Shown here: positions 15,183 to 60,912 of the stretch, piece after piece | How the letters are laid out: each line of letters begins with the position of its first letter | Position numbering within the stretch: position 1 is the first letter of the stretch | DNA from: Escherichia virus TH42 | Sequence record: MT446413.1 | Reading direction: 5' to 3' (one strand) | Length of the DNA: 64,000 bases | Made by a program: the position numbers and the translations under genes | Notes under the pieces: generated by a model | What the model was told of the DNA's origin: nothing | What the model saw: only the letters and a program-made list of their open reading frames with translations | Database searches by the model: none

Positions 15183-15193
15183 CTTTTACCTCT

Positions 15194-15556
15194 TTACTCT
15201 GCTACCAAAAGGCTCAGAGATTTACGAATGTAGGCAATGCTACGGAAGTTTCGATAGTTCTCTTGGAAGCGCATCTTTTCAAATTCTGCTTCCTGAAGTT
15301 CTACCTCTGCTGCATTGTATCCTGCCACAGCCAAACTCACCACATCCTGAGGTAAGGTATTACGACGACGAATAAGATATTTATTCGCCTTTAGTTTGCT
15401 TTGTGCACGAGCCATTTTGGCCTTTGCCGCCTTAATGCCATGAGCAATCCAGAGCAGTTGCTGCTCCAAATCATTCTCGTCCATGCCACCCAAATCATTT
15501 GCTACTTTATGCAGCGTAGACAGGTTCACATGGCCTTTGATGGGGCGTAGGTTCAT
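15194..15556 (-). CDS. hypothetical protein
   Basis: 120 aa ORF; start ATG overlaps stop of upstream small ORF (ATGA). Confidence 0.4.
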   Translation of the reverse strand: MNLRPIKGHVNLSTLHKVANDLGGMDENDLEQQLLWIAHGIKAAKAKMARAQSKLKANKYLIRRRNTLPQDVVSLAVAGYNAAEVELQEAEFEKMRFQENYRNFRSIAYIRKSLSLLVAE

Positions 15557-15720
15557 AACTTCTCCTGTTTATCACATTGATTGGTCAGCCAGTTGTAAGC
15601 CCCTCTGTTGTTCTTGCTTAACTCACAAGATGCAAAAGAATAGGTTCTGACAAACCCCACGGTGGCTAAGCAAATAAAGATTGCTGCCAATAAGAACTTA
15701 ACTTTCAACTTATTATCCAT
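15553..15720 (-). CDS. small membrane protein (unlisted 55-aa ORF)
   Basis: ATG 15718-15720; MDNKLKVKFLLAAIFICLATVGFV... hydrophobic N-terminus; stop TGA overlaps next ATG; below ORF-track size cutoff. Confidence 0.35.
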   Translation of the reverse strand: MDNKLKVKFLLAAIFICLATVGFVRTYSFASCELSKNNRGAYNWLTNQCDKQEKL

Positions 15721-15740
15721 ACAACCTCTTCTTTGAACTT

Positions 15741-15765
15741 AAAAAAGGACTCTCCTAAGAGAGCC
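15741..15765 (-). terminator. intrinsic terminator (minus strand)
   Basis: Minus-strand RNA GGCTCTC-TTAG-GAGAGTCC followed by UUUUUU. Confidence 0.45.
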
Positions 15766-15904
15766 AAGCTTTAAGGCCAATTAAATAGATATCACCCAAT
15801 ATCTGTGGATAACCTGCTCTTAAAATATTCTATCCGACGGATGTTCGAGGACTATTCCTCTCCCTAGCATCGGCCCCATACGGGTAAGATTAAATTAAGT
15901 TTAG

Positions 15905-15956
15905 GTTAGTTGAGCCAGAATAGCTCACATAGCCCTCTGATACTCACAAGGGCTAT
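15905..15956 (-). repeat. conserved composite RNA element, copy 1 (8-bp hairpin + TCAACTAACC on minus strand)
   Basis: Plus: GGTTAGTTGAG...ATAGCCCT-ctgatactcaca-AGGGCTAT; immediately 3' of gene 15962..16210. Confidence 0.5.
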
Positions 15957-15961
15957 AGATG

Positions 15962-16210
15962 TTACTCTGTGGCTCCGTCAAAGCGAAGGATTGCTGTTGG
16001 AACAGGGATTACAACCATATCAAAATCTAAGCGGAAGAGGTGTCCTGTGCTCAGTTGAACTGCTGTTACAGGCTTAGCAATTCCTGAGACTTCTGCGGAA
16101 GGGATTCTGATAAAGAATTCTCCCGGATACTCAGGTGAATGAAACACTTCTCCCGCTGTCATATTTACCAACTTAATGTCGGGTACGGGTTGTTTATTTT
16201 CAATTTGCAT
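15962..16210 (-). CDS. small protein, PG(D/E)xF paralog family
   Basis: 82 aa; MTAGEVF...PGEFF and C-terminal VIPVP; followed by conserved hairpin element. Confidence 0.45.
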   Translation of the reverse strand: MQIENKQPVPDIKLVNMTAGEVFHSPEYPGEFFIRIPSAEVSGIAKPVTAVQLSTGHLFRLDFDMVVIPVPTAILRFDGATE

Positions 16211-16443
16211 TACAGACCCTTCTTGGCACGATCTTTGGCAGTTTTGCCAGTGCGGATACGATGGGAAACATTAACCAGCTCACCACCTTCGACGATAGTT
16301 ACGCTTTTGTTTTTCGCAATATCAAACACAGACTTCTCTGTTCCGCCTAGACGAATCTGACGCGGTTCACTTTGGGTCTGAGTTGACTTGGACTGGAACT
16401 GGAACGGCTGACGGATGGCATCAATTGCGCTAACTTTAGACAT
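16210..16443 (-). CDS. hypothetical protein
   Basis: 77 aa ORF in operon context. Confidence 0.4.
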   Translation of the reverse strand: MSKVSAIDAIRQPFQFQSKSTQTQSEPRQIRLGGTEKSVFDIAKNKSVTIVEGGELVNVSHRIRTGKTAKDRAKKGL

Positions 16444-16471
16444 GTTTTTATTACCTTAAATTAAAGAGAGA

Positions 16472-16885
16472 TTAAACAACGAATTGGAACGCTTCGTATC
16501 CAAACTTATAAGAGAAGTCATGCTTGAATTTCACTACACGACCACGGTCACGGAAAGATTTCAGACGAGTGATGAACCCAGCCATCGGCTCAAGGTCAAT
16601 AGGGCTACGAATCTTCATAGCTACAGAGTGCAGCTTGAAGCGCTTACCAGTGCTACAGGCCATCATCACATACTCCATACGAGTAGTCCAGATGTTGAGC
16701 ACCATGCTTGTTTTCTCCGCTGACCAACCAGTCTTACGGGCGATTTCCTTATGGATGTTAAGCTCCAAAGGAAGAGGGAATTGCTTGTTGAATGAAGCCG
16801 GATAAAGTTTGACCAGAAGATCAATGTTTTCTTTATACGTGAGGTAGGCCAATTTTTTGCTTACGTTGGGGAATTTCCCAGCCAT
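16472..16885 (-). CDS. ProQ/FinO-like RNA-binding protein
   Basis: 137 aa; KKLAYLTYKENIDLLVKLYPASFNKQFPLPLELNIHKEI...NIWTTRMEYV parallels the ProQ N-terminal domain (FP-CF, PLKIGI, YT-x2-W-x-Y). Confidence 0.5.
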   Translation of the reverse strand: MAGKFPNVSKKLAYLTYKENIDLLVKLYPASFNKQFPLPLELNIHKEIARKTGWSAEKTSMVLNIWTTRMEYVMMACSTGKRFKLHSVAMKIRSPIDLEPMAGFITRLKSFRDRGRVVKFKHDFSYKFGYEAFQFVV

Positions 16886-16904
16886 TTTTGAAGCTCCAAA
16901 ACAG

Positions 16905-16962
16905 CGCCGAAAAGAGAGGCGTCATAGTAGCTAAAGGGAGGAGAGAAGAGGGCTTATTTACT
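16905..16962. repeat. ~45-nt direct repeat, copy 1
   Basis: GCGTCATAGTAG ... AGAGAAGAGG(G)CTTA-TTTACT shared with 23476-23522. Confidence 0.45.
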
Positions 16963-17070
16963 TGCCTTTTTCTGTCCGTTAATGTACCAGATAACTGAGC
17001 CATCAGGCTGTCGCTGACCAAAGCCTTTCAGGTTAACCATTTCTTCTTCAGAGTAGGCACGTTTTCTCAC
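16954..17070 (-). CDS. possible small protein (38 aa, GTG start)
   Basis: GTG preceded by AGGAG SD at 7 nt; followed by the 45-nt repeat; track ORF 16833..17021 in another frame judged less likely. Confidence 0.25.
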   Translation of the reverse strand: MRKRAYSEEEMVNLKGFGQRQPDGSVIWYINGQKKASK

Positions 17071-17083
17071 TGATTTTCTCCTG

Positions 17084-17341
17084 TCAATAGAAGGTGTGTG
17101 TAGAGTCGTCGTTCATAGATAACCAAACGAAGAAGACAATCACACAGAAAGCAATAATACCGAGAATTGCAAGGATTATAGTGTTAGCTAATGTGATATC
17201 TAACACGCTTTGCAGATACATAAAGAACTGTACGACACCACATATCATTAGCACGACACCAACAACAATGAGGAGCCAATATGTGCAGAGAAGGGCTGCA
17301 TCCAATAGTGACACATATTTTGGATGATCTTTACGTTTCAC
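17084..17341 (-). CDS. membrane protein (two predicted TM helices)
   Basis: 85 aa; LLCTYWLLIVVGVVLMICGVV and ILAILGIIAFCVIVFFVWL. Confidence 0.45.
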   Translation of the reverse strand: MKRKDHPKYVSLLDAALLCTYWLLIVVGVVLMICGVVQFFMYLQSVLDITLANTIILAILGIIAFCVIVFFVWLSMNDDSTHTFY

Positions 17342-17597
17342 TAACCTTCTCCACTAAATCCAGAGTTGCTGATTCAAATACAACACCAACTGGCATATTA
17401 GGTGCCATATTACGAACGTACCCACTCTGCATAGACACGGCTCGAGAGTATTCAGAACCGTTAGAGCTTTTGTTTACTTTCATGTAAAGGGTTTGTTCTT
17501 TATCTTCTTTAAGGGTAAAGAAAGAACCGGGAAGAAGTCCCTGAACGGTTACAGGGATATCTGCAACACGAGTCTTATTGATAGTAAGGACTGTCAT
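17331..17597 (-). CDS. small protein, PG(D/E)xF paralog family
   Basis: 88 aa; GLLPGSFFTLK ... LYMKV. Confidence 0.45.
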   Translation of the reverse strand: MTVLTINKTRVADIPVTVQGLLPGSFFTLKEDKEQTLYMKVNKSSNGSEYSRAVSMQSGYVRNMAPNMPVGVVFESATLDLVEKVSET

Positions 17598-17600
17598 TAT

Positions 17601-17855
17601 TTATTCCTTAATAATTGCTTCAGCTTTAATAGGAATAACAGCAACATCTTTACGAGGCGCTGTCGCTCGGCCTGTGTTAAGACAGGCTACAAGTCTATGC
17701 TCGTCCGCACCCTTAATGCACAAGCGAGTGGAGAACTCTGTAGAGAGTAAGATGTATAAATCACCATCTTCACTGTTAGGGTACATGAAGCAATCCCCAA
17801 GTCGCAAAGCACTGAGGGGTATTGAATTTTTACCTGCTGGCATGTTAACTTTCAT
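17601..17855 (-). CDS. small protein, PG(D/E)xF paralog family
   Basis: 84 aa; LSALRLGDCFMY ... LYILL ... VAVIPI. Confidence 0.45.
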   Translation of the reverse strand: MKVNMPAGKNSIPLSALRLGDCFMYPNSEDGDLYILLSTEFSTRLCIKGADEHRLVACLNTGRATAPRKDVAVIPIKAEAIIKE

Positions 17856-18069
17856 TTAACCACCTTTAGTTATGGACCAATTTATGAGAGAACTCTCGGA
17901 AGAATGCTTTCATAAATAGGGGGGAGGGGACGAATCCTCCCATATCCTATTAATTAATGTTGCATGTAAGACCTAACAATCCGATGCTGTAGTGGATAGC
18001 GTAAAACGCTTACCGGCATTAAACCCAGCCCATGAGGGGCTTATGTGATTAAAATGCTCAACATTGAGC

Positions 18070-18110
18070 GGTTAGTTGATAGGAGATCTGAAGTCCTATC
18101 TCAAAGGACT
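18070..18110 (-). repeat. related composite element, copy 3 (different hairpin, same GGTTAGTTGA flank)
   Basis: Plus: GGTTAGTTGATAGG...AGTCCT-atctcaa-AGGACT. Confidence 0.35.
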
Positions 18111-18132
18111 CTCGTAAGAATCCTTCACGATA

Positions 18133-18399
18133 TTACTTAGTAATAAAGACTGTCACCTTATCCATTACCCAGCCTATCAACATAAGTAAAGGTAAGAAGA
18201 GGATAAAGATCAGCATAAAAGGCCAGAAGAATATCACCGTCCAAATAGAGTATTCATCAGGCTTACCACTCCATGAGGAATGGAAGAAGTTGTAGAGTGT
18301 ATTGGTTTTAAAGCACCATTTAACTACAATGGCTGCCAACCACCAACCAATAACATAAATCAGGAGGACATACGCTGCTGTAACCATTGACCGTTCCAT
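18133..18399 (-). CDS. membrane protein (multiple TM helices)
   Basis: 88 aa; highly hydrophobic (VLLIYVIGWWLAAIVV, FFWPFMLIFILFLPLLMLIGWV). Confidence 0.45.
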   Translation of the reverse strand: MERSMVTAAYVLLIYVIGWWLAAIVVKWCFKTNTLYNFFHSSWSGKPDEYSIWTVIFFWPFMLIFILFLPLLMLIGWVMDKVTVFITK

Positions 18400-18614
18400 T
18401 GATAGTTGCGAGTTACCACGTTTCCGTGGATAAGGAAGTGCTGGCGGCGAAGGATATCTTTAACGTTGTAGTAGGCAGCGTTACCGAGATGGCCTTCTTT
18501 GATAAGCCAGCGCAGATTACGAATATCAACCAACAACATGCTTACTTGTTGCTTGCATGAAGTCTGAGCCGCTGTTTCAATCAGAGATTTCGTATCAGAA
18601 TAATGACCAGACAT
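18360..18614 (-). CDS. hypothetical protein
   Basis: 84 aa ORF; overlaps downstream gene start. Confidence 0.35.
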   Translation of the reverse strand: MSGHYSDTKSLIETAAQTSCKQQVSMLLVDIRNLRWLIKEGHLGNAAYYNVKDILRRQHFLIHGNVVTRNYQWNGQWLQQRMSS

Positions 18615-18615
18615 A

Positions 18616-18915
18616 TCACCACTCCTTACCTGTTGTTGTCACAGAACCACCACACCACAATGCCGTATCAATCACAACCTTGTCTGGTGTAGACTTCTCT
18701 TCGTTGATAGACGGGTTGGCATTAGAACAGGTTGCCCCGTTGTAGCGCATATCAATCTCACCACTAGGAACCTTGTTCCCTGAATGCCAGCGAGATACGC
18801 ACACACCTTCTACCGATAATGCACACCATCCATCAGGACGATGCTGTACACAGCCTGTAAGAGCTACACAGGCGATAAAGATACAGGTTAAGGTAATTAC
18901 ACCACCCCAGCTCAT
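18616..18915 (-). CDS. Cys-rich lipoprotein
   Basis: 99 aa; signal peptide with lipobox LTGC ([12 protein letters not shown]); six further Cys. Confidence 0.55.
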
Positions 18916-19052
18916 GATCCCTCCTGAAGCGCCTTACGGCGGCTATCTCGCCAAGCCATCCATAGGTAGGTTTTAAGTTCTTCTCTTTCTTCTTCGCTGA
19001 ACAAAGGAGAAGTAAAGATATCATCGAACCACTCATTAAACTCAGGGGTCAT
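18912..19052 (-). CDS. possible small protein (46 aa), translationally coupled to lipoprotein gene
   Basis: ATG with GGAGG SD; [31 protein letters not shown]...; stop TGA overlaps lipoprotein ATG; preferred over track ORF 18833..19036. Confidence 0.3.
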
Positions 19053-19072
19053 AAACCCTCCTATTTGATTTG

Positions 19073-19224
19073 GTGGACTATCTGGAATCGAACCAGAAGC
19101 TCACTAAGAAAGCAATTCCCACTGTTATAAAAGCACTTGCCTCAACAGGGATACACTAACTCTGGTGCCGTACCCATACTAGCCCTTGTTTAAAATTGGT
19201 CGGGACGGAAGGATTCGAACCCTC
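19073..19224 (-). other. two tRNA 3'-half-like motifs (T-arm plus acceptor 3' strand) with no detectable 5' acceptor partner
   Basis: Minus strand TCTGG-TTCGATT-CCAGA (~19081-19097) and GAGGG-TTCGAAT-CCTTC-CGTCCCG-A-CCA (~19197-19224, CCA encoded). Confidence 0.3.
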
Positions 19225-19248
19225 TTACGTTGATTTAAAAGCTCTTAG

Positions 19249-19327
<79 letters not shown>

Positions 19328-19350
19328 ATTAAGAGCTTTCAATATTTTGT

Positions 19351-19560
19351 TTAACTGAAAATACGCAAGGCCACATCATGACCGATATGACCGGGAACTT
19401 TGTGCTGCTCTATTTTCAAACAGAGTTTACAAACACGAGACACACGAGACTCTTTCGCTTCGACTGGAGTGTCTTTAGCGTGAGTGATGTGTAGGTTTTC
19501 AGTGATCACCCACTCGTGTTTACATCCAGAATCTTCGGGCTTTTTCTTACGAAAGAACAT
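19351..19560 (-). CDS. small zinc-finger-like protein (tandem paralog 1 of 3)
   Basis: Start at internal ATG (MFFRKKKPEDSGCKHEWVITE...CKLCLK); H-x-H/E-W and CxxC pattern shared with the next two ORFs. Confidence 0.4.
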   Translation of the reverse strand: MFFRKKKPEDSGCKHEWVITENLHITHAKDTPVEAKESRVSRVCKLCLKIEQHKVPGHIGHDVALRIFS

Positions 19561-19568
19561 AATACCCC

Positions 19569-19733
19569 TTAGATCAGATCTGTTTTCTTGTGCAGACCAC
19601 ACACTTTACAGCGAGAGTAGATACGCAACCCTTGTCGCTCTCTGTCAGTAAGTTTATTTGTGATCGTCAGTTCATAAGTATGAAGATCTTCCCACTCATG
19701 GAAATGAAAGAAACGTTTGAACCATTTAATCAT
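19569..19733 (-). CDS. small zinc-finger-like protein (tandem paralog 2 of 3; unlisted 54-aa ORF)
   Basis: MIKWFKRFFHFHEWEDLHTYELTITNKLTDRERQGLRIYSRCKVCGLHKKTDLI; ATG 19731-19733; below track size cutoff. Confidence 0.4.
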   Translation of the reverse strand: MIKWFKRFFHFHEWEDLHTYELTITNKLTDRERQGLRIYSRCKVCGLHKKTDLI

Positions 19734-19742
19734 AATGATTCC

Positions 19743-19904
19743 TTAGATTACATCACGATGACTAACATCACCACACACCTTACACTGAATAACGTAACGT
19801 GTGCCCTTGTCATTGTTCCCATCTGAATCTGTATAGACCAGAGGACGGGTGTTAATAATCTTCCAATCATGACAATGGAAGACACGCTTTAGCCATTTAA
19901 TCAT
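19743..19904 (-). CDS. small zinc-finger-like protein (tandem paralog 3 of 3)
   Basis: Start at internal ATG (MIKWLKRVFHCHDW...CKVCGD). Confidence 0.4.
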   Translation of the reverse strand: MIKWLKRVFHCHDWKIINTRPLVYTDSDGNNDKGTRYVIQCKVCGDVSHRDVI

Positions 19905-19905
19905 A

Positions 19906-20196
19906 CTAAGCACACGCCGGTAATTCAATTAACTGAGGAGTACGACAAGGGCCATCCTCATACACACCTACTAGTGTTGGCATGTAAGGCCCAGCGCACT
20001 GGTATTCATCGAACAGTTCGTTATAGGTAGGCTTCCACTTCCAAGCCCACACATAGCCCATTCGATCAATGGCAATGTAACGAGTGTTCAGAGGAACCTG
20101 CATCATCACATCACCAACTGCTATTACTTTCGTAATAACTGCTGCTCGGAAGTTTGTCTTCATAGTCTCACCGCTTAACCATAAATTGATACTCAC
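19906..20196 (-). CDS. hypothetical protein
   Basis: 96 aa ORF in operon context. Confidence 0.4.
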   Translation of the reverse strand: MSINLWLSGETMKTNFRAAVITKVIAVGDVMMQVPLNTRYIAIDRMGYVWAWKWKPTYNELFDEYQCAGPYMPTLVGVYEDGPCRTPQLIELPACA

Positions 20197-20359
20197 GGAT
20201 CGAGTCTACGTACTCCAACACCGCAGACTCTAACGTTTCCCACACCGAAGCCGCCCCCTCGCCTACGAGAACCTCCCATAACTCCGGTGATATCTGCGTT
20301 AGTTTTATCGTCGGTTTACCCGCAGCCTTACTCACCCCTAAAATAATTTCTTCCTGCAT
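20168..20359 (-). CDS. hypothetical protein
   Basis: 63 aa ORF; overlaps downstream gene by 29 nt. Confidence 0.3.
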   Translation of the reverse strand: MQEEIILGVSKAAGKPTIKLTQISPELWEVLVGEGAASVWETLESAVLEYVDSIREYQFMVKR

Positions 20360-20385
20360 AGTCTCACCTCTATTATATTCACCAG

Positions 20386-20694
20386 TTAATCCGACAATGC
20401 CGCCATCATTTTATTCATTTTAGCCACACCTTTACGGATAAGTGGCATGAACTCATCGGCCAGTTCAGTGGATAAAAGTTTAAGACCACCTGATTTAATT
20501 CCATTCACTGCCTTCTCAACCTCATCCGACAGCAATGTCATTGTTAACAATGGGGATTTTATTACCACAGTAAAGCCCGGTTCGTACCGTGAGTGACTGT
20601 AGGTGAACTCTAAGTGAGTGACACCGGGCATCTTAGACATTTGAGCACGGATATCTACATTAGGGTTACAGTGGGTTGAAGATGAAATTGTCAT
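20386..20694 (-). CDS. hypothetical protein
   Basis: 102 aa ORF. Confidence 0.4.
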   Translation of the reverse strand: MTISSSTHCNPNVDIRAQMSKMPGVTHLEFTYSHSRYEPGFTVVIKSPLLTMTLLSDEVEKAVNGIKSGGLKLLSTELADEFMPLIRKGVAKMNKMMAALSD

Positions 20695-20942
20695 GGCTTT
20701 TTAATCTCAATCTGGACGTTGACAACAAATACAGTATGGTTTGCACTGTACACCGAAGTGCCTATGATTGGTTTGTCATCACTGAGGATTTCAACAGCGT
20801 GCTCAAGGTTAATCTTCAGATGAAGTCGACCTGATTCCATGAAGAAGTCACCAGCACGAATCTCACCAAACTTGGATGGCACACCGATAGAGGGTATCAG
20901 TATGTCAGTACGACCTTTACGGTCAAATAAACGATTGAACAT
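20691..20942 (-). CDS. small protein, PG(D/E)xF paralog family
   Basis: 83 aa; FGEIRAGDFFMESGRLHLKI ... VFVVNVQIEI. Confidence 0.45.
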   Translation of the reverse strand: MFNRLFDRKGRTDILIPSIGVPSKFGEIRAGDFFMESGRLHLKINLEHAVEILSDDKPIIGTSVYSANHTVFVVNVQIEIKKP

Positions 20943-20951
20943 ATCAACCCC

Positions 20952-21161
20952 TTATGTGATATCAACCTCAAACCAACAGGTAAGAGCTTTTTCATTGTTG
21001 CGCTTTGGTTCAAAGGATTTAGTAACTGATAACACCCGTCGCTGTTGTCCATCAAACCAGATAGTTTCATTTCTTTCAGGAAGTAGGTTGTGTGCAGCAC
21101 AAACGATTTCACCTAGCACAACCTGTCTGCCATCTTGTTTACGAACTAAATGAATGTTCAT
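20952..21161 (-). CDS. hypothetical protein
   Basis: 69 aa ORF. Confidence 0.4.
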   Translation of the reverse strand: MNIHLVRKQDGRQVVLGEIVCAAHNLLPERNETIWFDGQQRRVLSVTKSFEPKRNNEKALTCWFEVDIT

Positions 21162-21204
21162 ATCAACCTCTCTTATTAGTTTAAGTAAGAGTTATCCCTT
21201 AATT

Positions 21205-21235
21205 AAAACAACAAAGGCCACCCCGAAGGGCAGCC
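21205..21235 (-). terminator. intrinsic terminator (minus strand)
   Basis: Minus-strand GGCUGCCC-UUCG-GGGUGGCC (8-bp stem with G-U pairs) then UUUGUUGUUUU. Confidence 0.55.
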
Positions 21236-21627
21236 TCTTATTAATTATCCACCGTAAAACCAATCACCTTGACGTTTACGGATGTTAGTTGTCAGACGAA
21301 GCATGGCAGACTCAATCTTCAGAGCACCATTTGCTACTGCATCCATACGTTCAGGACGGTTCATACGCTTGGTTGACTTCTTCATAACGTTCTCTCTTTG
21401 TTAGTGGAGGCAGGATTGCCAGTTAATATAAAGGGAAGCCCTACACGTTAAGGCTTCCGCTTGTACAAACTGTCGAGAACTCTCTACCCCTAGATTGTTC
21501 TCTATCCCAAACCGATACATACCCCTACATATCGGAATGCCATTCGAAAATTAACAGGTTTTAGTCTATCACCGGATGTTTGAGACAAGTCTCGCCCTAG
21601 CGGTGAGCCATATGGCACTGAGATTAT

Positions 21628-21678
21628 GGTTAATTGAGGAACACCCTCACATAGCCCTCTGATAATCACAAGAGCTAT
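21628..21678 (-). repeat. conserved composite RNA element, copy 2
   Basis: Plus: GGTTAATTGAGG...ATAGCCCT-ctgataatcaca-AGAGCTAT; the G-to-A change keeps pairing only in the minus-strand RNA (U-G wobble); 3' of gene 21688..21912. Confidence 0.5.
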
Positions 21679-21687
21679 AAGTCGATG

Positions 21688-21912
21688 TTACTTGTTGGTC
21701 AGTCTAACATTAGGTACACGATATACCTCTGTTGGTTTACGATCAGAGGAACGTTTACCAGTGTAGAGGTTAACAAAATAGGTTTTGTGTTCCCCATAAC
21801 ACGAAGTACACATGTAGTATTGGGTTTCAGCAGTATTAAACTGGAAGACTTCACCCGGCTCTAAATCACCGAGAGTTACAACCGCTGGTGTATTGTCGAT
21901 ATCAATCTTCAT
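21688..21912 (-). CDS. small protein, PG(D/E)xF paralog family
   Basis: 74 aa; LGDLEPGEVFQF ... VPNVRLTN; followed by conserved hairpin element. Confidence 0.45.
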   Translation of the reverse strand: MKIDIDNTPAVVTLGDLEPGEVFQFNTAETQYYMCTSCYGEHKTYFVNLYTGKRSSDRKPTEVYRVPNVRLTNK

Positions 21913-22143
21913 TTAACCACCAATATTCGTTACTTGTACATTAGGTACAGAGATAACTTCATGATCTTCAGGTATCTGGAACAAAGTCCCCTGACCAAGA
22001 CCAACGACACGGTGCATACCCTGCACATAGGTGTCTGTCTTTAGGTAGAGGTGTTCAGTGTTATTTTGTAATCGGAATACGTCACCCGGACGTAACTCAC
22101 TAAGCTTTTTAGTAACAACTTCAGAGGAGAGATTGATTTTCAT
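21913..22143 (-). CDS. small protein, PG(D/E)xF paralog family
   Basis: 76 aa; LSELRPGDVFRL ... VPNVQVTN; tandem duplicate of 21688..21912. Confidence 0.45.
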   Translation of the reverse strand: MKINLSSEVVTKKLSELRPGDVFRLQNNTEHLYLKTDTYVQGMHRVVGLGQGTLFQIPEDHEVISVPNVQVTNIGG

Positions 22144-22299
22144 TTGATTAACACCAAATCAGTACGACGTTCGAAGGAAGGAGAGGATTCACCATTCCAC
22201 TGAACAAGATAACAGAGAACACCATCAATCGTTGTTCTCCGACGAATAACACCTGTTTGAGTACCGCCAACAAGGCGAACAGTGTGACCAGTGGTAAAC

Positions 22300-22605
22300 T
22301 TAACCTTTGAGCGCATCCTCTGTTTCCTCATTCTGGCGTTTAATTTCTTCAGTGAGTTGCTTATTGAGATCTTGAATACGCTTAATCTCCCAACCCAAAG
22401 AAGCCAAACGATCATTACGTGCTTCAATTTGCTCCTGCATCTTAACCAATTTGGAACGAACATCAGCATTAAAGACTTCCTCTTGCTTAAGAAGGAACTC
22501 ATAACGACGCTTCCAGCTTGCTGACTTATTACTTAAAGCAATAAATCCCAGAGTAGAAATCGTTACAGTGAGTACGAGAAGGAACTTATAAACCTCTAAA
22601 GACAT
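22300..22605 (-). CDS. i-spanin-like membrane protein (N-terminal TM helix plus coiled coil)
   Basis: 101 aa; FLLVLTVTISTLGFIAL then heptad-rich charged segment; adjacent to cell-wall hydrolase gene. Confidence 0.4.
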   Translation of the reverse strand: MSLEVYKFLLVLTVTISTLGFIALSNKSASWKRRYEFLLKQEEVFNADVRSKLVKMQEQIEARNDRLASLGWEIKRIQDLNKQLTEEIKRQNEETEDALKG

Positions 22606-22668
22606 ATCTTTATCCTCTTAAAGTAAGATATTATAAGAAATATTATTTAGAATTTATTATTTCTAAAC

Positions 22669-23193
22669 TTAATTTCTATCAATAATTTTCAGAGGTCTAT
22701 ATACAGTCATTACCTCTGGTTCCGAATCACTACCACTTTTTGCAGAGAAAATCATAAGTAGGTGATTTATAAGGGAATTTAGTTTGTCAATCTTGGCACC
22801 TATGAACCAGTCACGGGCACTATTATTGAACACTAAATCACCACAATACATTGGATTGGTATACCACTTTGGCACCCCTTCGCTCTTACTCTGAAAGTAT
22901 GTACCGCTATACAAAGGCACATAGCTTTTCTTCAGTGCACGTCTTGCAAGCTGCTCGCTCTCCCTGATTGACTTCTTTGTCAGAGGATTATCATCACGAA
23001 TTAGCTTTACATAACGTTTAAAAGGCTTCTCCTTCTTTAATAAGACGGGTATCCACTCGAACTGGTTTCGTTGTTTTATAACCTGCTCGGCAGTCAGTTT
23101 TCGTTGTGACATTCTGTTTATTACGGTATCCGCTACTAATGCTTTGCAAGCGGTTGGCTGATTCCCTGCCTCATAATAAATAGTCAATGTCAA
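22669..23193 (-). CDS. SleB-type cell-wall hydrolase (candidate endolysin)
   Basis: 174 aa, TTG start; motifs ALVADTVINRMSQ, NQFEW, PLYSGTYF resemble Hydrolase_2 (SleB) family. Confidence 0.55.
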   Translation of the reverse strand: MTLTIYYEAGNQPTACKALVADTVINRMSQRKLTAEQVIKQRNQFEWIPVLLKKEKPFKRYVKLIRDDNPLTKKSIRESEQLARRALKKSYVPLYSGTYFQSKSEGVPKWYTNPMYCGDLVFNNSARDWFIGAKIDKLNSLINHLLMIFSAKSGSDSEPEVMTVYRPLKIIDRN

Positions 23194-23244
23194 AAGTAGC
23201 TGGGCTGTCGTTATCAGAACTTACTACCCCCTTGTTTTACGGGC

Positions 23245-23272
23245 ATAAAAAAGCCCCATCCGAAGACGGGGC
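23245..23272 (-). terminator. intrinsic terminator (minus strand)
   Basis: Minus-strand GCCCCGUC-UUCG-GAUGGGGC then UUUUUUAU; two weaker hairpin+U-run structures at ~23327-23350 and ~23432-23452. Confidence 0.5.
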
Positions 23273-23475
23273 GACCTGAAAAGTGAACATGACCTCACTC
23301 GTTTAAGAACCCTCTCAAAGACTCTTAAAAAAGCGGCCTCATTAGAGGCCCGGTCAAATGACCATCCAATAGGGATTGAACCATGCCAATGATTCACAAA
23401 GGGCTTTCCCTTTAGGCATCACTAGCTACGCAAAAAGCCGCACAAAGGCGGCAGGCACAAAGACGCCCTAGAAGA

Positions 23476-23522
23476 GCGTCATAGTAGTTGACTACAGGTG
23501 TAGAGAAGAGGCTTACTTTACT
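23476..23522. repeat. ~45-nt direct repeat, copy 2
   Basis: GCGTCATAGTAG identical 12-mer plus AGAGAAGAGGCTTACTTTACT; overlaps stop codon of 23513..23956. Confidence 0.45.
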
Positions 23523-23956
23523 CTCGCTTCCTTGATAGGGTCTATGTATTTTTCGACTCCCCATTTATGCTGACTATCAGCGTAGAAAACATCCGGTGCA
23601 CATTGGCTGGTAGTAGGGAAAGCTTTCGGTGGCTTAGTGCTACCTTTATTCTTCTGCTTACCCTTAGTGCGGCCGTTACAATAGATTTCTAAACGTTTCT
23701 CTTCTTCTGTTTTCGCTGCACCGTTGGTTAACAAGGAACGTTTATGATCAGCAAGAAGAAGTGCATCAGCACGGTGAACACGACGCCCTAACACCTTTGC
23801 TACGGTAGACGGTTTATGTTCTTGAGCGGCTTGTTTGATAGCTCTACGTTTAAGGCTACGTTTGCTAACGTGGTTAGTAGCGACTGGCTTATCTTTTTCC
23901 AGTTCACTCATCGAGAACACACGCCCGCCTTTCATGCTGATTTTAGATTTAGCCAT
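23513..23956 (-). CDS. basic hypothetical protein
   Basis: 147 aa; Lys/Arg-rich, possible nucleic-acid binding; no motif recognised. Confidence 0.4.
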   Translation of the reverse strand: MAKSKISMKGGRVFSMSELEKDKPVATNHVSKRSLKRRAIKQAAQEHKPSTVAKVLGRRVHRADALLLADHKRSLLTNGAAKTEEEKRLEIYCNGRTKGKQKNKGSTKPPKAFPTTSQCAPDVFYADSQHKWGVEKYIDPIKEARVK

Positions 23957-24026
23957 TGCTTTATTCCTTTCGCTGATAAATTATATCGTGCAAGCCTTAC
24001 CACATAGCAAGGCTTAACCAAATAAC

Positions 24027-24236
24027 TTAATCAATCAAACTAAACGACTTCCAGCTACGCGTAATTGCTACCCGTTCGCCATCAAAGAGAACACTTACAG
24101 AGATTAGCTTACCGCGACAACTGGATACCGTGGTAATACGTCCGGTTAGTGCCTTACCTTTATTCAGATAGTGATAGCGGACACGACGCCCTAGTAGTCG
24201 AGTAGCTTTCTTCTCTAATGTGCTTAAGCTGGTCAT
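24027..24236 (-). CDS. hypothetical protein
   Basis: 69 aa ORF. Confidence 0.35.
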   Translation of the reverse strand: MTSLSTLEKKATRLLGRRVRYHYLNKGKALTGRITTVSSCRGKLISVSVLFDGERVAITRSWKSFSLID

Positions 24237-24457
24237 TAAACAACCTCTTTATATTGGAGTGATCTTACACGACGATACATTACAGAAGATGCATTAATCG
24301 CCGCTTGTTTTCTTTCGTGCTCATGCTGGTTTTTGTGTATCTTATCCATCTCGGCATCATTACGACGACGCTGTAAGATTCTGCTACACTTGCGATGGTT
24401 ATTGTTAGCACGTGCTTTCTTACAGATAGGGCACAAGTGAGATTGAGTTAAGATCAT
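24236..24457 (-). CDS. hypothetical protein with CxxC pair
   Basis: 73 aa; LCPICKK...HRKC. Confidence 0.35.
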   Translation of the reverse strand: MILTQSHLCPICKKARANNNHRKCSRILQRRRNDAEMDKIHKNQHEHERKQAAINASSVMYRRVRSLQYKEVV

Positions 24458-24678
24458 TTTCGCAGTCCTAACTTACGAAGGAATCGGCCTAGCTTAGTTT
24501 CCTGCGTGATAGTGTAAGTAACAGAGTTTTCAATTAATGCTTGTTCTTGAATCGGTGACGGATACCATTCACCGGTAAGGATGCATTTACACTCGATTCC
24601 ATACTTATCGGTTTTACGATAGGTCATGTTGTTTAAGATATTACGATACATCTTAACTTCTGTTTTCAATTTTGGCAT
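24454..24678 (-). CDS. hypothetical protein
   Basis: 74 aa ORF. Confidence 0.35.
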   Translation of the reverse strand: MPKLKTEVKMYRNILNNMTYRKTDKYGIECKCILTGEWYPSPIQEQALIENSVTYTITQETKLGRFLRKLGLRK

Positions 24679-24732
24679 GGTGTTTATCTCTTTTTAGTTT
24701 CTTTGATTAGTACACTGAATCAATGCACTAGT

Positions 24733-24766
24733 AAAAGAAAAGGCGCTACCCTTTCGAATAGCGCCT
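24733..24766 (-). terminator. intrinsic terminator (minus strand) after 24787..25689
   Basis: Minus-strand AGGCGCUA-loop-UAGCGCCU followed by UUUCUUUUAC. Confidence 0.45.
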
Positions 24767-24786
24767 TATATGTTCTTTATTGTAGG

Positions 24787-25689
24787 TTATGCAGCTTGTT
24801 GGCGTGCTGCCATGATCTCGGCAGCTTTACGCAATACTTCTTCCTCGTCTGCCGCCGCTTTCTCGTTCGCTTTGACAGTAGAAGCTGTAGAGATACGACC
24901 GCGAAGGTTAGACAATTTTTCAGTCATTTCGTTGATCGCTTTTTCCATTTCATCAGCGTATGAGTCCAGCGATTCAAGCTCTTTAACTGAGGCATTGATC
25001 AGATAGTCATCGCTGATAGATACAGTTGATGCGGTTACTTTCTTAAGGAGTGAATCAAAAGTTTTCTTAACTTTGCCTACTTCTTCACTCAATGCGATAG
25101 TGTTATCAGAAGATGCACCGTTGCGCTCGTCTGCCAACAAGGCCGCTTCAATACGGATGGCAGCTAAACGATCAGTTAGAGCGTAAATATCCTGATTAAA
25201 GTTTTCGTTAACCTTCTGGTTAATCTGATTTGCTACCGGAACGTTGTCGTTGCAGCCTTTATAGAAAGCTGGATTATCGACCTGTACATCTTCACCTTTA
25301 GCAAAGCGTTCGAAGGAGTTAGACCAGCGGGCACGGTTTTGCTCCATTTTGGTTTTAACCTGTTCCGGTTTAGCATCTTCTTTCGCTTTCGCTTCACCTT
25401 CCAGATTAATCCATTTCTTTTTACCGTTCGCCCCGTCGCTGTTGTACTTGATAGGAGTGAGGAAAGAGATTGCAACCGCAATCACATCTAAATCACGGTA
25501 ACGCTCAGTCAGTAAGAAATCTACCGCCCCCTGCAATACATCCAGCTTCTTACCGTTAGCACGGAAGTGCTGCAAATGACCTAACAGGAAGTTAGAAACA
25601 TCTTGCTTAATCGCTGCGTTGTTGCTACGGATATTGTTAGCCAGTGCGTTAAAGCCAGATTCGTTAACCAGATTGAAAGATTTAGCCAT
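24787..25689 (-). CDS. hypothetical protein (first gene of leftward block)
   Basis: 300 aa ORF with AAGG SD; Ala/Lys/Glu-rich, probably helical; terminator hairpin immediately downstream. Confidence 0.5.
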   Translation of the reverse strand: MAKSFNLVNESGFNALANNIRSNNAAIKQDVSNFLLGHLQHFRANGKKLDVLQGAVDFLLTERYRDLDVIAVAISFLTPIKYNSDGANGKKKWINLEGEAKAKEDAKPEQVKTKMEQNRARWSNSFERFAKGEDVQVDNPAFYKGCNDNVPVANQINQKVNENFNQDIYALTDRLAAIRIEAALLADERNGASSDNTIALSEEVGKVKKTFDSLLKKVTASTVSISDDYLINASVKELESLDSYADEMEKAINEMTEKLSNLRGRISTASTVKANEKAAADEEEVLRKAAEIMAARQQAA

Positions 25690-26594: not shown

Positions 26595-26645
26595 AGTGCT
26601 CATTATGAATCATCCCGTTTAGCGTGTCAACCACTTTTTTTAAAT
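26595..26645 (-). promoter_or_regulatory. sigma70-type promoter (leftward)
   Basis: On minus strand: A-tract, -35 TTGACA (26625-26630), 17-bp spacer, -10 CATAAT (26602-26607). Confidence 0.45.
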
Positions 26646-26897
26646 CTTTTTCTCGTCTATTCTTTCGAATGACCAGTTAATCACACATTGGATTAACAAG
26701 ATTGTAAGCGGTTGCGCTTAACTTTCTGATTCATATTTTTAAAGAGCGGTGCGGTTTTCATGACTCCGCAAACATTTTCATTTTGAAGTCTACTTATGCA
26801 CTAACGGGGCGACTACACCCGACCTACACGCTGCACTATGTGCCACCTTTCCCGCGCTACGTCACTTAGGGGAACTGTTTAGCAAGTTGCCTTGCTT

Positions 26898-56493: not shown

Positions 56494-59400
56494 ATGGCTA
56501 ACTTAAAACCGTGGGAAGAAGCTTCTAAAAGCCCTGCGTATTTGAATGCCTCCCCTGAGCAACAGTCTCAGATGCGAGAACAGTATAAAGCAGCGGGTGG
56601 AACGATTCCTGAGGCTGCTCCAGCTCCTAAACAAGAAGAGCAACCGGGGTTGGTTGGTGATTTTGCCCAAGGTGTGTCCAACGCTATTCAATCAGGTGGT
56701 GCAAACATTGCAGCTAGTGCTGCTAGAGGTATTGGTGGATTAGTTGAGATTGGAGAAAATCTAGCTGGTACACAGACAAGTTATGGTAAGCGTATTCAAG
56801 ACAACTCTAAAAACTTACTAGAAGAACGTCTTTCTCAAATCGAAGATGGTGTAGGTAAATCTGTAGGTCAGTATGCTGGCGTTGCCGCTGATATCGGTCT
56901 TACGGTCGCTAACCCAGCTGTAGCTGCTGCTGTTATTGCAGCTCGTGAAACAGGTAGGGCTTATGCGGACCAAACTCCAGAAGAGGGTGAAGAGAAGTCT
57001 GTTCTTGATGCTGGTCTAGTTGGTGGTGCTAACTTTGCAGCTCAGAAGATTCTTCCGGGGATGACAGGAACTGCTTCTACTACTCTAGGTCGTGTTGGTC
57101 AGAGTGTAGCATCTAACGCAGTGGCTGGTGCTAAAGGTGGTGCTCTTGTAGGTGCTGCTGAAGCACAGAACAAATATGGTGATGACACTACTCTTGCTAA
57201 CATTATTGAAGGTGCTGTAGAAGAAGGTGCGATGGGTGCTGCTTACGGTGGGGCTATCGGTGGGGTTCATGGATTGATAAGTCGTCCTAGTCCTCAAGTC
57301 TTTGACCGTACTCCAGAACACGTTAAGACTGACATTGCCGCTGAAGATGAAGCTATTCGCTCAGCTAAAAATGCAGACGAACTAAGAGAGGCTTACTCTA
57401 AAGCTGATAACGCTAACACAGCTTCCGCTCTTAACCTCCTCGATGAGAACGGTTTCCGTGTTACTGATGCTGTGGCTATGGACTCCCCTGCTGCTCAGCG
57501 TATCCTTAATACTGATCAAAGTCGTGCTGAGAAGGCTGCTACTATTCTGGAAGATCGTTCTAATGTTCCGGGTTTAAATCCTCTTGCTGCTCCTAATAAA
57601 AAGCAAGGTAAAGCTAACGCAGACAACGAACATAACCAGAAACAAGCTGTGGCAATGAAAGATGCAATGGCTGATTATACAAAAGACAACACTAAATCTC
57701 TGTCTGATGTTCTGGATAATCTTGATCGTGAATTAACAGCTGCTCGTGCCAGTGGTGATTTTACTGGTAGTGCTATGGACATTAAGAATCGTACCCAAGC
57801 AGATCGTGATTTCATTGATGCTTATAAAACTTTCTATAACGAAGCTAATCGATTCAAAGCTCGTGATGGTGAAGACTTTAATAACTTCATAGAGAAAGCT
57901 ACAGAGCTTCAGAAACTGGCTGATAATGTATCTCCAGAAATGAAAACTGCTATTGGTGGTTTGAAGAAACTTAAAGGAATGCCTGAAGGTTTCAACCCAA
58001 TCCAAGATGCTTTCACTCTGAATAATACAGCTAAGTTAATGAGTAATCAAGACCGTGGTTGGACTTCTCTGACTGCTGATGGTTTTAAAGAAGCTGCTCC
58101 TCCAGTTCTGATTAAGAATCCTCTTGGTGCTGCTAAGCATGTTCTTAACCGTTTCCGTTCTGACCGTGCTCGCTCTCAACGCGAAAGCCAGCAGGCTGCT
58201 AACAGTGAAGCTATTCGTTCTCTTGCTCGTAGTGATATGGAAGTAACTCGTGCTCGTGCTCAGGCTGATGAAGCCCGTGCTGCGATGGAGAAAGAACCTG
58301 AAGTTGATGACATTAAATTTAAGACTCAAAATGACACGGAAATCGAACCGGTTCGGGAGCCTTCTGCTACTACTGTGACGGAAGAAATTTCCTCTCCAGA
58401 AACCTCTCCTTTAACTGCTCGTGATTTGGTCGCACAGAGACGTGCTTTGAAGGAAGCTGAAGCTAGACGTCAAGAAGCCGAAGCTAATAAGGTTCAGGAA
58501 GAACCAACTCCAGAGCCAGTTCCACAAGAACCAGTTACTACCGCAAGGGATTTAGTTGCCCAGCGTCGTGCTGTTGCAGAAGCTCGTAAACGTCAAGAAG
58601 CAGAAGAGGCTAGCAAGGCTGCTGAGAGCGTTCCTGAGGAGCCTACCGTTCAAGCCGAGCCATTACCTACCCGTGCTCCTAAAGCTCCTGAGATTGAGCC
58701 TGAGCCTGTTAAACCAGCTACTGGAATAGAACGTCTAGCTGCTATGTCAAGTGCTGCCCGTCAAGCTACTAAAGATCGTGCAGATCGCTTTGCTCGTTCC
58801 CTGTATACGGCAGGTGCTAAGGCTAAAGCCACAGCGGAGAATTTCCTTTCTTATAAAGGTGACCCGAAAGAGTTGATGCGTCGTATCCGTCAGGAAGACC
58901 AAGCTAACAACGCTGAACGTCATGCTGAGATGGCTCGTAACCAGCTTGCTTCTCAACAGGGTATTGCTGCTGCTAAGTCACAACGTGTTCGTTCTTCGTT
59001 TGCTGATTGGGTTAAGGAACGTGGTCTACCTTCTGATATTGCTACCAAGGCATTACGTGCTGAGGAGAAAGGTATTGGTGGGAACGTGACTAGTCTGGAT
59101 TCACTGAAGCGTAGGTCTGAACGTCTGTATCAGAAACAGCGCGATGATGAATTTAACAAGATGTATGAAGAAGCTCTTGCAGAGAATAAGAAGCTTGATA
59201 AAGCTGATGCTCCTAAACTGGTTGACCAGAAGAAAGAGTTACACAGCGAAATCAATTTACTTCTTGATGCAGAGCCATTACGTCCAGCTCAAAAAGATGC
59301 TATGCGTAAGTTGATGGAAGACTTTGTAGATGGGAAGTTTAAAGCTTCAGAGAAGGCTGGAAGGGAAGATGCTTTGGAAGTGGGACAGATGAAGGATATA

Positions 59401-60912
59401 TGGGATGGATTCATTAACACATATAACCGTGAAGTTAACATGTTCAACAAAGCTAATAAGAACTCTCAGTACGAAGCAGCAGCTAAACATTTGCAAGCAC
59501 GTCAAGAACGTCTTGAGACGCTCCGTAACAGAGCTAAAGCTCGTAGTGATGCCAAGGCAGCAATAGAGACAGAAAGACAGTCTCTCGAGGCTATAGCGGC
59601 TCAGAAATCGGAGATGGAGAACCTGTTGAAAGATTTACCAGAGTCGGTACGTGAGTCTCAGGAAGGTCGTACACTGAAACAGTTAGCAGCTCACCACGAT
59701 AAGAACTCTCCTGTACCACCGGAGCGTTTCCGTAGTATTATCGAACGTATCCACAACGCAGAAAGTGATTACATTGACCGTAAGCGTCGTCTCACTGAAG
59801 CGGAAGAAGATGCTCGAGAAGCTAAGTGGAATAAGATGTATGAACAGGCGGAAGAGATGAACCGTAAATACGACATTGATTCCCGTGTACAACGTGACAA
59901 GAAGCTCAAAGAAGCTCAGGAAGCAGAGAACGATCGCATGGCAATACAACGCCAACGTGATGACATTCATAAGCGCCTGATGCGTTCTATGGAGGATAAA
60001 GGGATTCCTAAAGAAGATGCAGAAATCTTTGCAGGTTCTTATATGGATAACCGTTACTCTCTTCTGGAGAAACCTATGACTCCTACTGAGCACCAGAATG
60101 CTCGTTCTCGTATTGAATCGGATATTTCAAAGTTTGCTAAGGATTTTGAGAAGATGACACCAATCGAGAAAGATATTGCTAAGGCAACTGGTGATATGGA
60201 TGGGAAGGTAGAGGTGGATGCAGACACTTCGAAAGCTATCGAAGATGCGAAGAAGGTAGATTCTGAGTTGAAGAAACTTCAGGATGAGGAGTTGGAAATG
60301 GAGAAAGTTCGTTCGGCATTGCCAGAAGATGAAAGATCTCAAGCCTCCTCTGATATACTGGAAAGCATTAAGAAGCAGGAAGATGACTTTGCTAACAAAG
60401 CAGAGAAAGCTTTTATCGAAGGTAAAGACTTGCAGGAACTGGCTAGTGTAGCAGAGGTTCTAGATAGAGTTCATGGTGCTGACAAGGCTGGTAACAACCG
60501 TCGCTTTGTACGTGCATTACAAACTGCTGCGGAGAACAAGAAACAGTATGGGGATAATCCAGTGGCTTGGTTTAGTGCTGATGACTATTCTGCTATTGCT
60601 AAACTTGGGGCTGCTTCAGCGGGTGGTAACAAATCTAGAGCACTGGAGAAAATCTTTGGTTCTACTGCTGAACAAGCTAAAGGGAAACTTTTAGGGCGGG
60701 ATGATGTAGCGAAGATTAGACGTGTGATTGAAGAGAATCCTGATGTTAAGATCCCTTCTTACAAGACAACTACTCGACAAGAGTATTTACAGTTCTTGGA
60801 GAAGTATAATGACGAGGGAGAGTTGAAAGTCAAACGTGGTTCTCTGTCTGACAAGTTGGAGAGAAGTAAGCGTCAAGCTAAACTCCGTGTTAGAGTTCGA
60901 GCTAAGGAGTAA
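56494..60912 (+). CDS. very large virion protein (internal core/ejection protein or tape-measure-like)
   Basis: 1472 aa, Ala/Glu/Lys/Arg-rich with long helical repeats; TAATGTATA motif upstream; bidirectional terminator downstream. Confidence 0.55.
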   Translation: MANLKPWEEASKSPAYLNASPEQQSQMREQYKAAGGTIPEAAPAPKQEEQPGLVGDFAQGVSNAIQSGGANIAASAARGIGGLVEIGENLAGTQTSYGKRIQDNSKNLLEERLSQIEDGVGKSVGQYAGVAADIGLTVANPAVAAAVIAARETGRAYADQTPEEGEEKSVLDAGLVGGANFAAQKILPGMTGTASTTLGRVGQSVASNAVAGAKGGALVGAAEAQNKYGDDTTLANIIEGAVEEGAMGAAYGGAIGGVHGLISRPSPQVFDRTPEHVKTDIAAEDEAIRSAKNADELREAYSKADNANTASALNLLDENGFRVTDAVAMDSPAAQRILNTDQSRAEKAATILEDRSNVPGLNPLAAPNKKQGKANADNEHNQKQAVAMKDAMADYTKDNTKSLSDVLDNLDRELTAARASGDFTGSAMDIKNRTQADRDFIDAYKTFYNEANRFKARDGEDFNNFIEKATELQKLADNVSPEMKTAIGGLKKLKGMPEGFNPIQDAFTLNNTAKLMSNQDRGWTSLTADGFKEAAPPVLIKNPLGAAKHVLNRFRSDRARSQRESQQAANSEAIRSLARSDMEVTRARAQADEARAAMEKEPEVDDIKFKTQNDTEIEPVREPSATTVTEEISSPETSPLTARDLVAQRRALKEAEARRQEAEANKVQEEPTPEPVPQEPVTTARDLVAQRRAVAEARKRQEAEEASKAAESVPEEPTVQAEPLPTRAPKAPEIEPEPVKPATGIERLAAMSSAARQATKDRADRFARSLYTAGAKAKATAENFLSYKGDPKELMRRIRQEDQANNAERHAEMARNQLASQQGIAAAKSQRVRSSFADWVKERGLPSDIATKALRAEEKGIGGNVTSLDSLKRRSERLYQKQRDDEFNKMYEEALAENKKLDKADAPKLVDQKKELHSEINLLLDAEPLRPAQKDAMRKLMEDFVDGKFKASEKAGREDALEVGQMKDIWDGFINTYNREVNMFNKANKNSQYEAAAKHLQARQERLETLRNRAKARSDAKAAIETERQSLEAIAAQKSEMENLLKDLPESVRESQEGRTLKQLAAHHDKNSPVPPERFRSIIERIHNAESDYIDRKRRLTEAEEDAREAKWNKMYEQAEEMNRKYDIDSRVQRDKKLKEAQEAENDRMAIQRQRDDIHKRLMRSMEDKGIPKEDAEIFAGSYMDNRYSLLEKPMTPTEHQNARSRIESDISKFAKDFEKMTPIEKDIAKATGDMDGKVEVDADTSKAIEDAKKVDSELKKLQDEELEMEKVRSALPEDERSQASSDILESIKKQEDDFANKAEKAFIEGKDLQELASVAEVLDRVHGADKAGNNRRFVRALQTAAENKKQYGDNPVAWFSADDYSAIAKLGAASAGGNKSRALEKIFGSTAEQAKGKLLGRDDVAKIRRVIEENPDVKIPSYKTTTRQEYLQFLEKYNDEGELKVKRGSLSDKLERSKRQAKLRVRVRAKE

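Follow-up and report, generated by a model that had tools for sequence, protein, structure and literature searches.

The window analyzed here is a stretch of 64,000 nucleotides from Escherichia virus TH42 (sequence record MT446413.1), and megablast of its 15–25 kb portion identifies it as a phiEco32-like podophage of the Gordonclarkvirinae, with the Suseptimavirus group as its nearest relatives (Bas88 at 95.6% identity, followed by TH43, IME267, SU7, and ECBP2). Between 14 and 27 kb the window contains small early genes for which the minus strand is the coding strand, and within this region lies a direct repeat with two intergenic copies, which is the subject of this analysis. Copy 1 is located between a 38-codon open reading frame (ORF), a homologue of phi32_94 and ECBP2_0093, and the start codon of a 137-aa gene, and copy 2 is located directly 3' of a 147-aa gene (Table 1). 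The 38-codon ORF (17070..16954) falls below the default length of the ORF list for this DNA and is annotated in relatives. In the minus-strand reading, copy 1 is ...AGT AAA TAA GCCCTCTTCTCTCCTCCCTTTAGC TACTATGACG CCTCTCTTTTCGGCGCTGTTTT and copy 2 is ...AAG TAA GCCTCTTCTCTACACCTGTAGTCAAC TACTATGACG CTCTTCTAGGGCGTCTTTGTG, with the two TAA stop codons at 16956-16954 and 23515-23513, respectively.

A preliminary description made from the sequence of the window had reported a 45-nt direct repeat, an identical 12-mer within it, and the placement of each copy at or just after a minus-strand stop codon, and all three observations are borne out. The gapped local alignment of the two copies (16898-16962 with 23458-23522) extends the repeat to approximately 65 nt and has a score of 28, compared with a maximum of 19 (mean 8.1, standard deviation 1.6) among 3978 pairs of random 85-nt segments, and the best non-self match of copy 1 across the whole window is copy 2. 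The shared 12-mer, GCGTCATAGTAG, occurs in the window only at 16919 and 23476, though taken alone it is weak evidence, as a search that allows up to two mismatches returns seven matches where 3.6 are expected. A third near-match with two mismatches, at 28033, lies in coding sequence and was dismissed.

Conservation in related phages had been named as the test of the element, and in all relatives checked both copies occupy the same two intergenic positions. The comparison set consisted of 12 genomes from three genera (Kuravirus, Suseptimavirus, and Nieuwekanaalvirus) and contained 23 intergenic copies. Both copies are placed alike in phiEco32 (63070 and 70592, minus strand), SU10, Paul, LAMP, one IMG/VR contig, EP335, KBNP1711, SU7, ECBP2, and HC-25922; the examined sequence of NJ01 covers copy 2 only, and copy 1 was thus assessed in 11 relatives and is present in 11/11. 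Scans of IMG/VR and of metagenomes with 17-mers yielded mostly chance matches and seven real relatives, with copy 1 in all seven contigs and copy 2 in one, and these left the variation of the core unchanged; an exact-pattern scan of IMG/VR with the full repeat matched ECBP2 alone. Across the 23 intergenic copies the sole block that never varies is the 10-mer TACTRTGACG (where R is A or G), which is also retained in all seven metagenome relatives, and its flanks vary. In copy 1 of EP335 and KBNP1711 the pyrimidine tract on the 5' side of the core is replaced, and copy 2 of KBNP1711 retains the 10-mer although both the tract and the GACGC...GCGTC hairpin have been lost, and the core motif therefore does not need the tract. 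Hairpin potential is found in 22 of the 23 copies through differing pairings, in which the GAC(GC) of the motif provides the 5' arm, and one metagenome contig forms its hairpin by yet another pairing; covariation in the hairpin could not be scored because one arm is the invariant motif.

The surroundings of the two copies are far less constant. An additional 57-aa gene separates the 147-aa gene from copy 2 in EP335, Paul, and LAMP, and the stop codon is therefore not part of the element: its adjacency holds in the window but does not hold as a conserved unit, since phiEco32 and the phages with the extra gene upstream of copy 2 break it. Both copies are found at junctions of conserved and variable DNA. 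In the case of copy 1, blastn homology to Kuravirus covers the 38-codon ORF and the copy itself and stops at 16905-16913, and the genes downstream are unrelated between genera, including the 137-aa gene, which is unrelated to the phiEco32 gene at the same position. In the case of copy 2, gene content differs among relatives on both sides, and in Kuravirus a canonical terminator is conserved approximately 45 nt after the copy.

The invariant core matches a sequence at which phage DNA is known to be interrupted. Pseudomonas phage tf contains 14 ligatable nicks, all at 5'-TACT/RTGMC-3', that were mapped by run-off sequencing and primer extension (PMC3517423), and phage Rembedalsseter exhibits 13 strand-specific drops in nanopore coverage at WACTRTGAC, a motif that is enriched on one strand in 61 LUZ24-like genomes at about nine sites per genome (PMC11780129). 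The core TACTRTGACG of the phiEco32-like phages is the tf nick consensus plus a following G, and a G directly follows the 9-mer at 12 of the 14 tf sites and in all intergenic copies of phiEco32-like phages. Likewise, the only core position that varies in these phages, between A and G, is the R of the tf consensus. The match extends beyond the motif to the genomes that carry it, as ORF-level blastp reveals approximately 17 collinear core genes common to tf, phiEco32, and the window, and likewise to Salmonella phage 7-11. These encode the terminase large subunit TerL (37% identity), portal, scaffold, major capsid protein, and tail proteins, a 5'-3' exonuclease, DNA polymerase (40%), a 3'-5' exonuclease, a primase-helicase (47%), and an ATP-grasp/GATase/amidoligase/COOH-NH2-ligase cluster (for the relatedness of tf and phiEco32 core genes see also PMC3890496). 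By synteny, the nicked top strand of tf is equivalent to the minus strand of the window, which carries copies 1 and 2 in its early-gene part, and in both systems the sites tend toward gene boundaries. As judged from these sequence comparisons, the window phage belongs to the lineage that carries the tf-type nicking system.

A third copy of the core is present on the plus strand of the window, inside a 1472-aa late gene (Table 1). The whole phiEco32 genome contains exactly three TACTRTGMC sites as well, two of them intergenic and one at 27941 on the plus strand inside gene 26, and in both genomes all three sites are on the local sense (non-template) strand. Ten genomes from the three genera were compared at the third site, where a 15-mer, TACTGTGACGGAAGA, is present in 10/10 and is their longest common substring, in surroundings that average 69% identity with indels. 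The codon preceding the site changes its amino acid (ACT, AGT, or GCT) and keeps its final T, and three four-fold-degenerate positions within the motif are invariant. Because the coding copy is invariant at synonymous positions, the alignments indicate selection on the DNA word itself, also at a site that has neither hairpin nor tract. Compared with a uniform expectation, the 10-mer is found three times in the window (0.24 expected), three times in phiEco32 (0.30), 11 times in 7-11 (0.34), and 10 times in tf (0.18).

Phage 7-11 (NC_015938), a phiEco32 relative in the genus Moazamivirus, contains 13 TACTRTGMC sites where 1.4–2.7 are expected (Poisson P ~3e-9). The minus strand, equivalent to that of copies 1 and 2, carries 12 of them, seven of which lie in the last 14 kb beside early genes; the remaining one is a plus-strand site in a late gene, an arrangement similar to that of the window phage. 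A G follows 12 of the 13 sites and AC precedes 11 of them, and the resulting context, AC-TACTRTGAC-G, is also that of copy 2 (tcaacTACTATGACG) and of the third site in the window. Phage 7-11 differs from the window phage in having many sites, mostly in coding sequence and without tract or hairpin flanks, and nicks have been reported for neither. The enrichment and strand bias of the motif in this genome suggest that 7-11 is a heavily nicked phage, of which we found no report.

One database record ends at the position where a cut in copy 2 would be predicted. Record OQ555404.1, from phage HC-25922, has 70,042 bp and is approximately 7 kb shorter than its relatives; it opens with AGCCTTTC, the same eight bases as the phiEco32 record at its left physical end, and its final base aligns with window 23482, precisely where TACT^ATGAC of copy 2 would be cut, and its minus-strand reading begins ATGACGCTC... 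The extent of the record is that of the 70-kb minus-strand piece expected from a nick at copy 2, and we estimate the chance that a random record terminus would fall at one such position as below 1%. As it stops exactly at the predicted copy 2 nick, the record is probably a truncated assembly. It is designated a complete genome, and the early promoters are among the approximately 7 kb that are missing at its right end. The left physical end that opens with AGCCTTTC, which is defined for phiEco32 and HC-25922, maps near window 30174, and because it lies inside the window, the source record of the window is circularly permuted or is joined across the terminal repeat.

The repeat is thus real and functional, and the part of it under constraint is a 10-bp DNA word with the same sequence as the mapped nick site of a related lineage. 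By analogy with that lineage, we consider it probable, at roughly 0.65, that the two copies are two of three conserved sites for phage-encoded, site-specific, and strand-specific DNA nicking. The identity of the motif, its conservation, the relatedness of the lineages, the enrichment and strand bias in 7-11, and the record end at the predicted cut all point in this direction, and the making of a physical nick in phiEco32-like phages, its timing, the enzyme, and any purpose are inferred. If the mechanism resembles that of tf, Rembedalsseter, and phiKF77, 5'-TACT/RTGACG-3' would be cut late in infection, at the phosphodiester bond that joins T4 to R5, to give a ligatable nick, with a 3'-OH and a 5'-phosphate, that would be packaged into the virion. 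The minus strand would be interrupted at 23483/23482 and 16926/16925, with the right physical end approximately 6.9 kb and 13.4 kb away, respectively, and the plus strand at 58374/58375, and the nicks would presumably be sealed following injection. An unsealed nick would not block transcription, because all three sites are on the non-template strand. The pyrimidine tract and small hairpin would be secondary in such a scheme, and may extend the recognized context, may be left from a common origin, or may act at the transcript level, for example in weak termination at copy 2.

Several observations weigh against this interpretation. Among the phiEco32-like phages there is none with mapped nicks, and our literature search found no paper that links phiEco32, Kuravirus, or 7-11 with nicks, whereas those of tf are mapped; the window phage also differs from tf in having E. 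coli as its host. The tf-type phages have 8–15 sites per genome, all on one strand, compared with only three in the window phage and in phiEco32, which are distributed over both physical strands (two minus and one plus), and the tract and hairpin that flank copies 1 and 2 have no counterpart at the sites of tf or 7-11. The number of 9-mers in the window, three where 1.2–2.4 are expected, is within chance, only one site, as many as chance would give, is present in the relative GAP52, and Dougherty et al. saw no enrichment beyond their 61-phage cluster. One-mismatch variants of TACTRTGMC are depleted in the window (16 compared with 34.5 expected from a third-order Markov model, below all 300 permuted-pattern controls) and similarly in tf (10 compared with 22.9), but this depletion is absent in phiEco32 (37 compared with 41) and was not used as evidence. 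The terminus of OQ555404.1 is a single observation from a record whose sequencing and assembly history is not known. Finally, tf and 7-11 have in common a T7-endonuclease-I-like protein of which no homologue was detected in either phiEco32 or the window.

The search for a nickase produced no single candidate. The HNH genes phi32_30 and phi32_31 have no tf homologue. As a separate observation, the most conserved protein among tf, 7-11, and phiEco32 (approximately 60% identity) is a basic, low-complexity protein of approximately 105 aa with no Pfam match, encoded at the tf_29 locus in tf (16115-16429) and by phi32_58 in phiEco32 (42583-42900), and the frame that is conserved in tf (16126-16413) is not the one annotated as tf_29.

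The preliminary description had proposed that the repeat is a shared 3' untranslated region (UTR) element, that is, a processing site, a terminator-associated motif, or a promoter for the next gene. The promoter part of this proposal fails, as a promoter scan finds no sigma-70-like promoter at either copy. For either a sigma-70 or a sigma-S promoter, TACTAT or TACTGT could represent a -10 hexamer, but there is no usable -35 element upstream; a promoter at copy 2 would also fire directly into two terminators, and the gp36 promoter consensus tAATGTAtA (PMC4331800, PMC4281155) is absent from both copies. An RNA-level element in the early mRNAs, in which tract, box, and hairpin together terminate or attenuate transcription, provide a site for RNase processing or stabilization, or control the next gene by anti-Shine-Dalgarno pairing, would place the repeat with rho-independent terminators and early-operon RNA hairpins such as the RNase III sites of T7, which are found in comparable positions, where genes end on the strand that is transcribed. 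Both copies directly follow stop codons on that strand, a hairpin is possible in nearly every copy (if through varying pairings), and in copy 2 of the window phage's clade UUUGUG and then a canonical terminator come after the hairpin; the SU7 record annotates its equivalent of this hairpin as a terminator on the basis of an ARNold prediction. In phiEco32, the CCUCCUU of copy 1 is able to pair with the downstream Shine-Dalgarno sequence AAGGA, and its fold has a z-score of -2.8 relative to shuffled sequences. This is the only one of four folds tested that is better than its shuffles, however, since both window copies and phiEco32 copy 2 are not (z of +1.2, -0.9, and -1.1, respectively), and an Rfam 15 scan of 14000-27000 with E values up to 5 finds no match at either copy, its only convincing match being a tRNA at 19249-19327. 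In a terminator scan neither repeat hairpin passes, the stem of copy 1 being only 4 bp (4–7 bp for the repeat stems in general), and a short U-run after the hairpin is present only in copy 2 of the Suseptimavirus group and is missing from the Kuravirus hairpins. The constant part of the repeat is an unpaired 10-mer rather than a stem or a U-run, it is intact in KBNP1711 copy 2, and it is conserved inside a coding region without tract or hairpin flanks. An RNA element would also leave unexplained both the identity to a mapped DNA nick motif and the record terminus at copy 2. This pattern of conservation, with an invariant 10-mer, a dispensable tract and hairpin, a coding copy, and a match to the nick consensus, therefore points toward a motif at the DNA level and away from an RNA 3'-UTR element, and we regard the RNA element as unlikely. 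What stands of the 3'-UTR or terminator proposal applies to copy 2 alone, where a secondary role of the hairpin is possible.

If the constrained unit is a DNA word, it might be bound rather than cut. A conserved DNA-binding site with another role, such as replication initiation or priming, a transcription regulator box, or a packaging-related pause, would require no standing nick, and the motif could have been inherited from the nicking lineage and repurposed. The conservation and the lineage evidence fit this explanation equally, a few strictly conserved sites on both strands are unlike the many one-strand sites of tf and 7-11, and inverted repeats beside the motif are typical of protein-binding or origin-like sites. 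The end of OQ555404.1 exactly at the tf cut position argues, by contrast, for a real strand break, and the sites have no promoter-like features and no candidate binding protein was identified, so that we consider a repurposed binding site improbable, though a little less so than an RNA element. The position of both copies at the junctions of conserved and variable gene blocks, with an unrelated gene after copy 1 and variable gene content beside copy 2, would also be consistent with a neutral scar of duplication or recombination, in which an intergenic cassette was copied once and retained without function. In that case the 10-mer would not be expected to stay invariant over three genera while adjacent bases change, and the third, coding copy, the enrichment in 7-11, and the match to the nick consensus would all be left unexplained, making a neutral origin very improbable.

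Programmed nicking, the explanation that we prefer, may be taken one step further, though this extension is doubtful. The phiEco32-like coliphages might have received, from an ancestor that they share with the LUZ24-like and 7-11-like podophages, a minimal nicking system that has three invariant sites and in which the intergenic cassettes of tract, nick, and hairpin would be functional cis-elements whose 3'-OH ends prime strand-displacement synthesis or recombination. Priming of this kind would explain why the cassettes are positioned exactly at the junctions where early modules have been exchanged between genera.

Table 1 Features of the two intergenic repeat copies and of the third core site in the window.
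Feature	Position	Strand	Description
Repeat copy 1	16898..16962	-	Between the 38-codon ORF and the ATG (16885) of the 137-aa gene
Copy 1 core TACTATGACG	16920..16929	-	Predicted nick between 16926 (T) and 16925 (A)
Copy 1 pyrimidine tract CCCTCTTCTCTCCTCCCTTT, 20 nt	16933..16952	-	5' side of core; partly common to copy 2
Copy 1 weak hairpin CGCC-N9-GGCG	16905..16921	-	Overlaps 3' end of core; followed by CTGTTTT
38-codon ORF	16954..17070	-	GTG start, AGGAG ribosome-binding site; homologue of phi32_94 / ECBP2_0093; stop abuts copy 1
Repeat copy 2	23458..23522	-	Directly 3' of the 147-aa gene (23513..23956)
Copy 2 core TACTATGACG	23477..23486	-	Predicted nick between 23483 (T) and 23482 (A)
Copy 2 hairpin GACGCTC-TTCTA-GGGCGTC	23462..23480	-	-11.4 kcal/mol; followed by TTTGTG; resembles a weak terminator
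Intrinsic terminator GCCGC-CTTTGT-GCGGC-TTTTT	23432..23452	-	Canonical; just downstream of copy 2, outside the repeat (terminator scan)
Third core TACTGTGACG	58371..58380	+	Inside the 1472-aa late gene 56494..60912 (phi32_26 homologue); predicted nick between 58374 and 58375
tRNA gene	19249-19327	-	Rfam tRNA, 36.4 bits; matches the tRNA-Arg annotated in relatives

The early region surrounding the repeat contains several other features. The 137-aa gene directly downstream of copy 1 (16472-16885, minus strand) has a Pfam match to the ProQ/FinO RNA chaperones that passes the gathering cut-off (E 4.5e-6, 27 bits). Downstream of copy 2, the interval 23250-23455 contains three successive terminator-like hairpins on the minus strand, with stems at 23452, 23350, and 23272, and little convincing coding capacity between them, and it may be a multi-terminator or small-RNA region. 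A second intergenic direct repeat is located among the minus-strand genes at 15924-15957 and 21646-21679 (34 nt, 94% identity); its minus-strand reading is GTAACATC..TATAGCCCTTGTGAGTATCAGAGGGCTATGTGAG, which folds as a hairpin of 10–13 bp, and it is conserved in the phage family, twice per genome in SU7 and ECBP2 and once in phiEco32, SU10, EP335, and Paul. There is also a 43-nt direct repeat at 19692-19734 and 19863-19905, with 81% identity and a spacing of 171 nt.

It has been known for approximately 50 years that packaged phage DNA can contain programmed nicks, initially from T5 and then from phiKMV-like and LUZ24-like phages. The nicks of T5 and BF23 (R/GCGCRGG) and of phiKMV-like phages (CGACxxxxxCCTA/CTCCGG) are features of the same kind, sequence-specific and strand-specific in packaged DNA, but their motifs and lineages are unrelated to the window phage and they serve as an analogy only. 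The LUZ24-like phages (Krylovvirus and Bruynoghevirus), which include tf and Rembedalsseter, share with the window phage the motif itself, and the motif was thus already known; no report of it appears to exist for the enterobacterial phages related to phiEco32 and 7-11. To our knowledge, the function of phage genome nicks is unknown, even in the model phages, as is the tf-type nicking enzyme. If nicking does take place at these sites, nick sites can truncate or mis-terminate the assemblies of such phages, as OQ555404.1 suggests, and candidates for the nickase can be limited, by comparing tf, 7-11, and phiEco32, to the approximately 17 common core proteins, whose nucleases include TerL and the FEN-like 5'-3' exonuclease, or to a small protein that has escaped detection. 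It would also mean that the nick system reaches a well-studied family of E. coli phages, in which phiEco32 offers good genetics and a mapped transcription program. With only three sites, two of which are non-coding and could be mutated without altering any protein, these phages would provide a tractable E. coli system in which to determine the function of programmed nicks.

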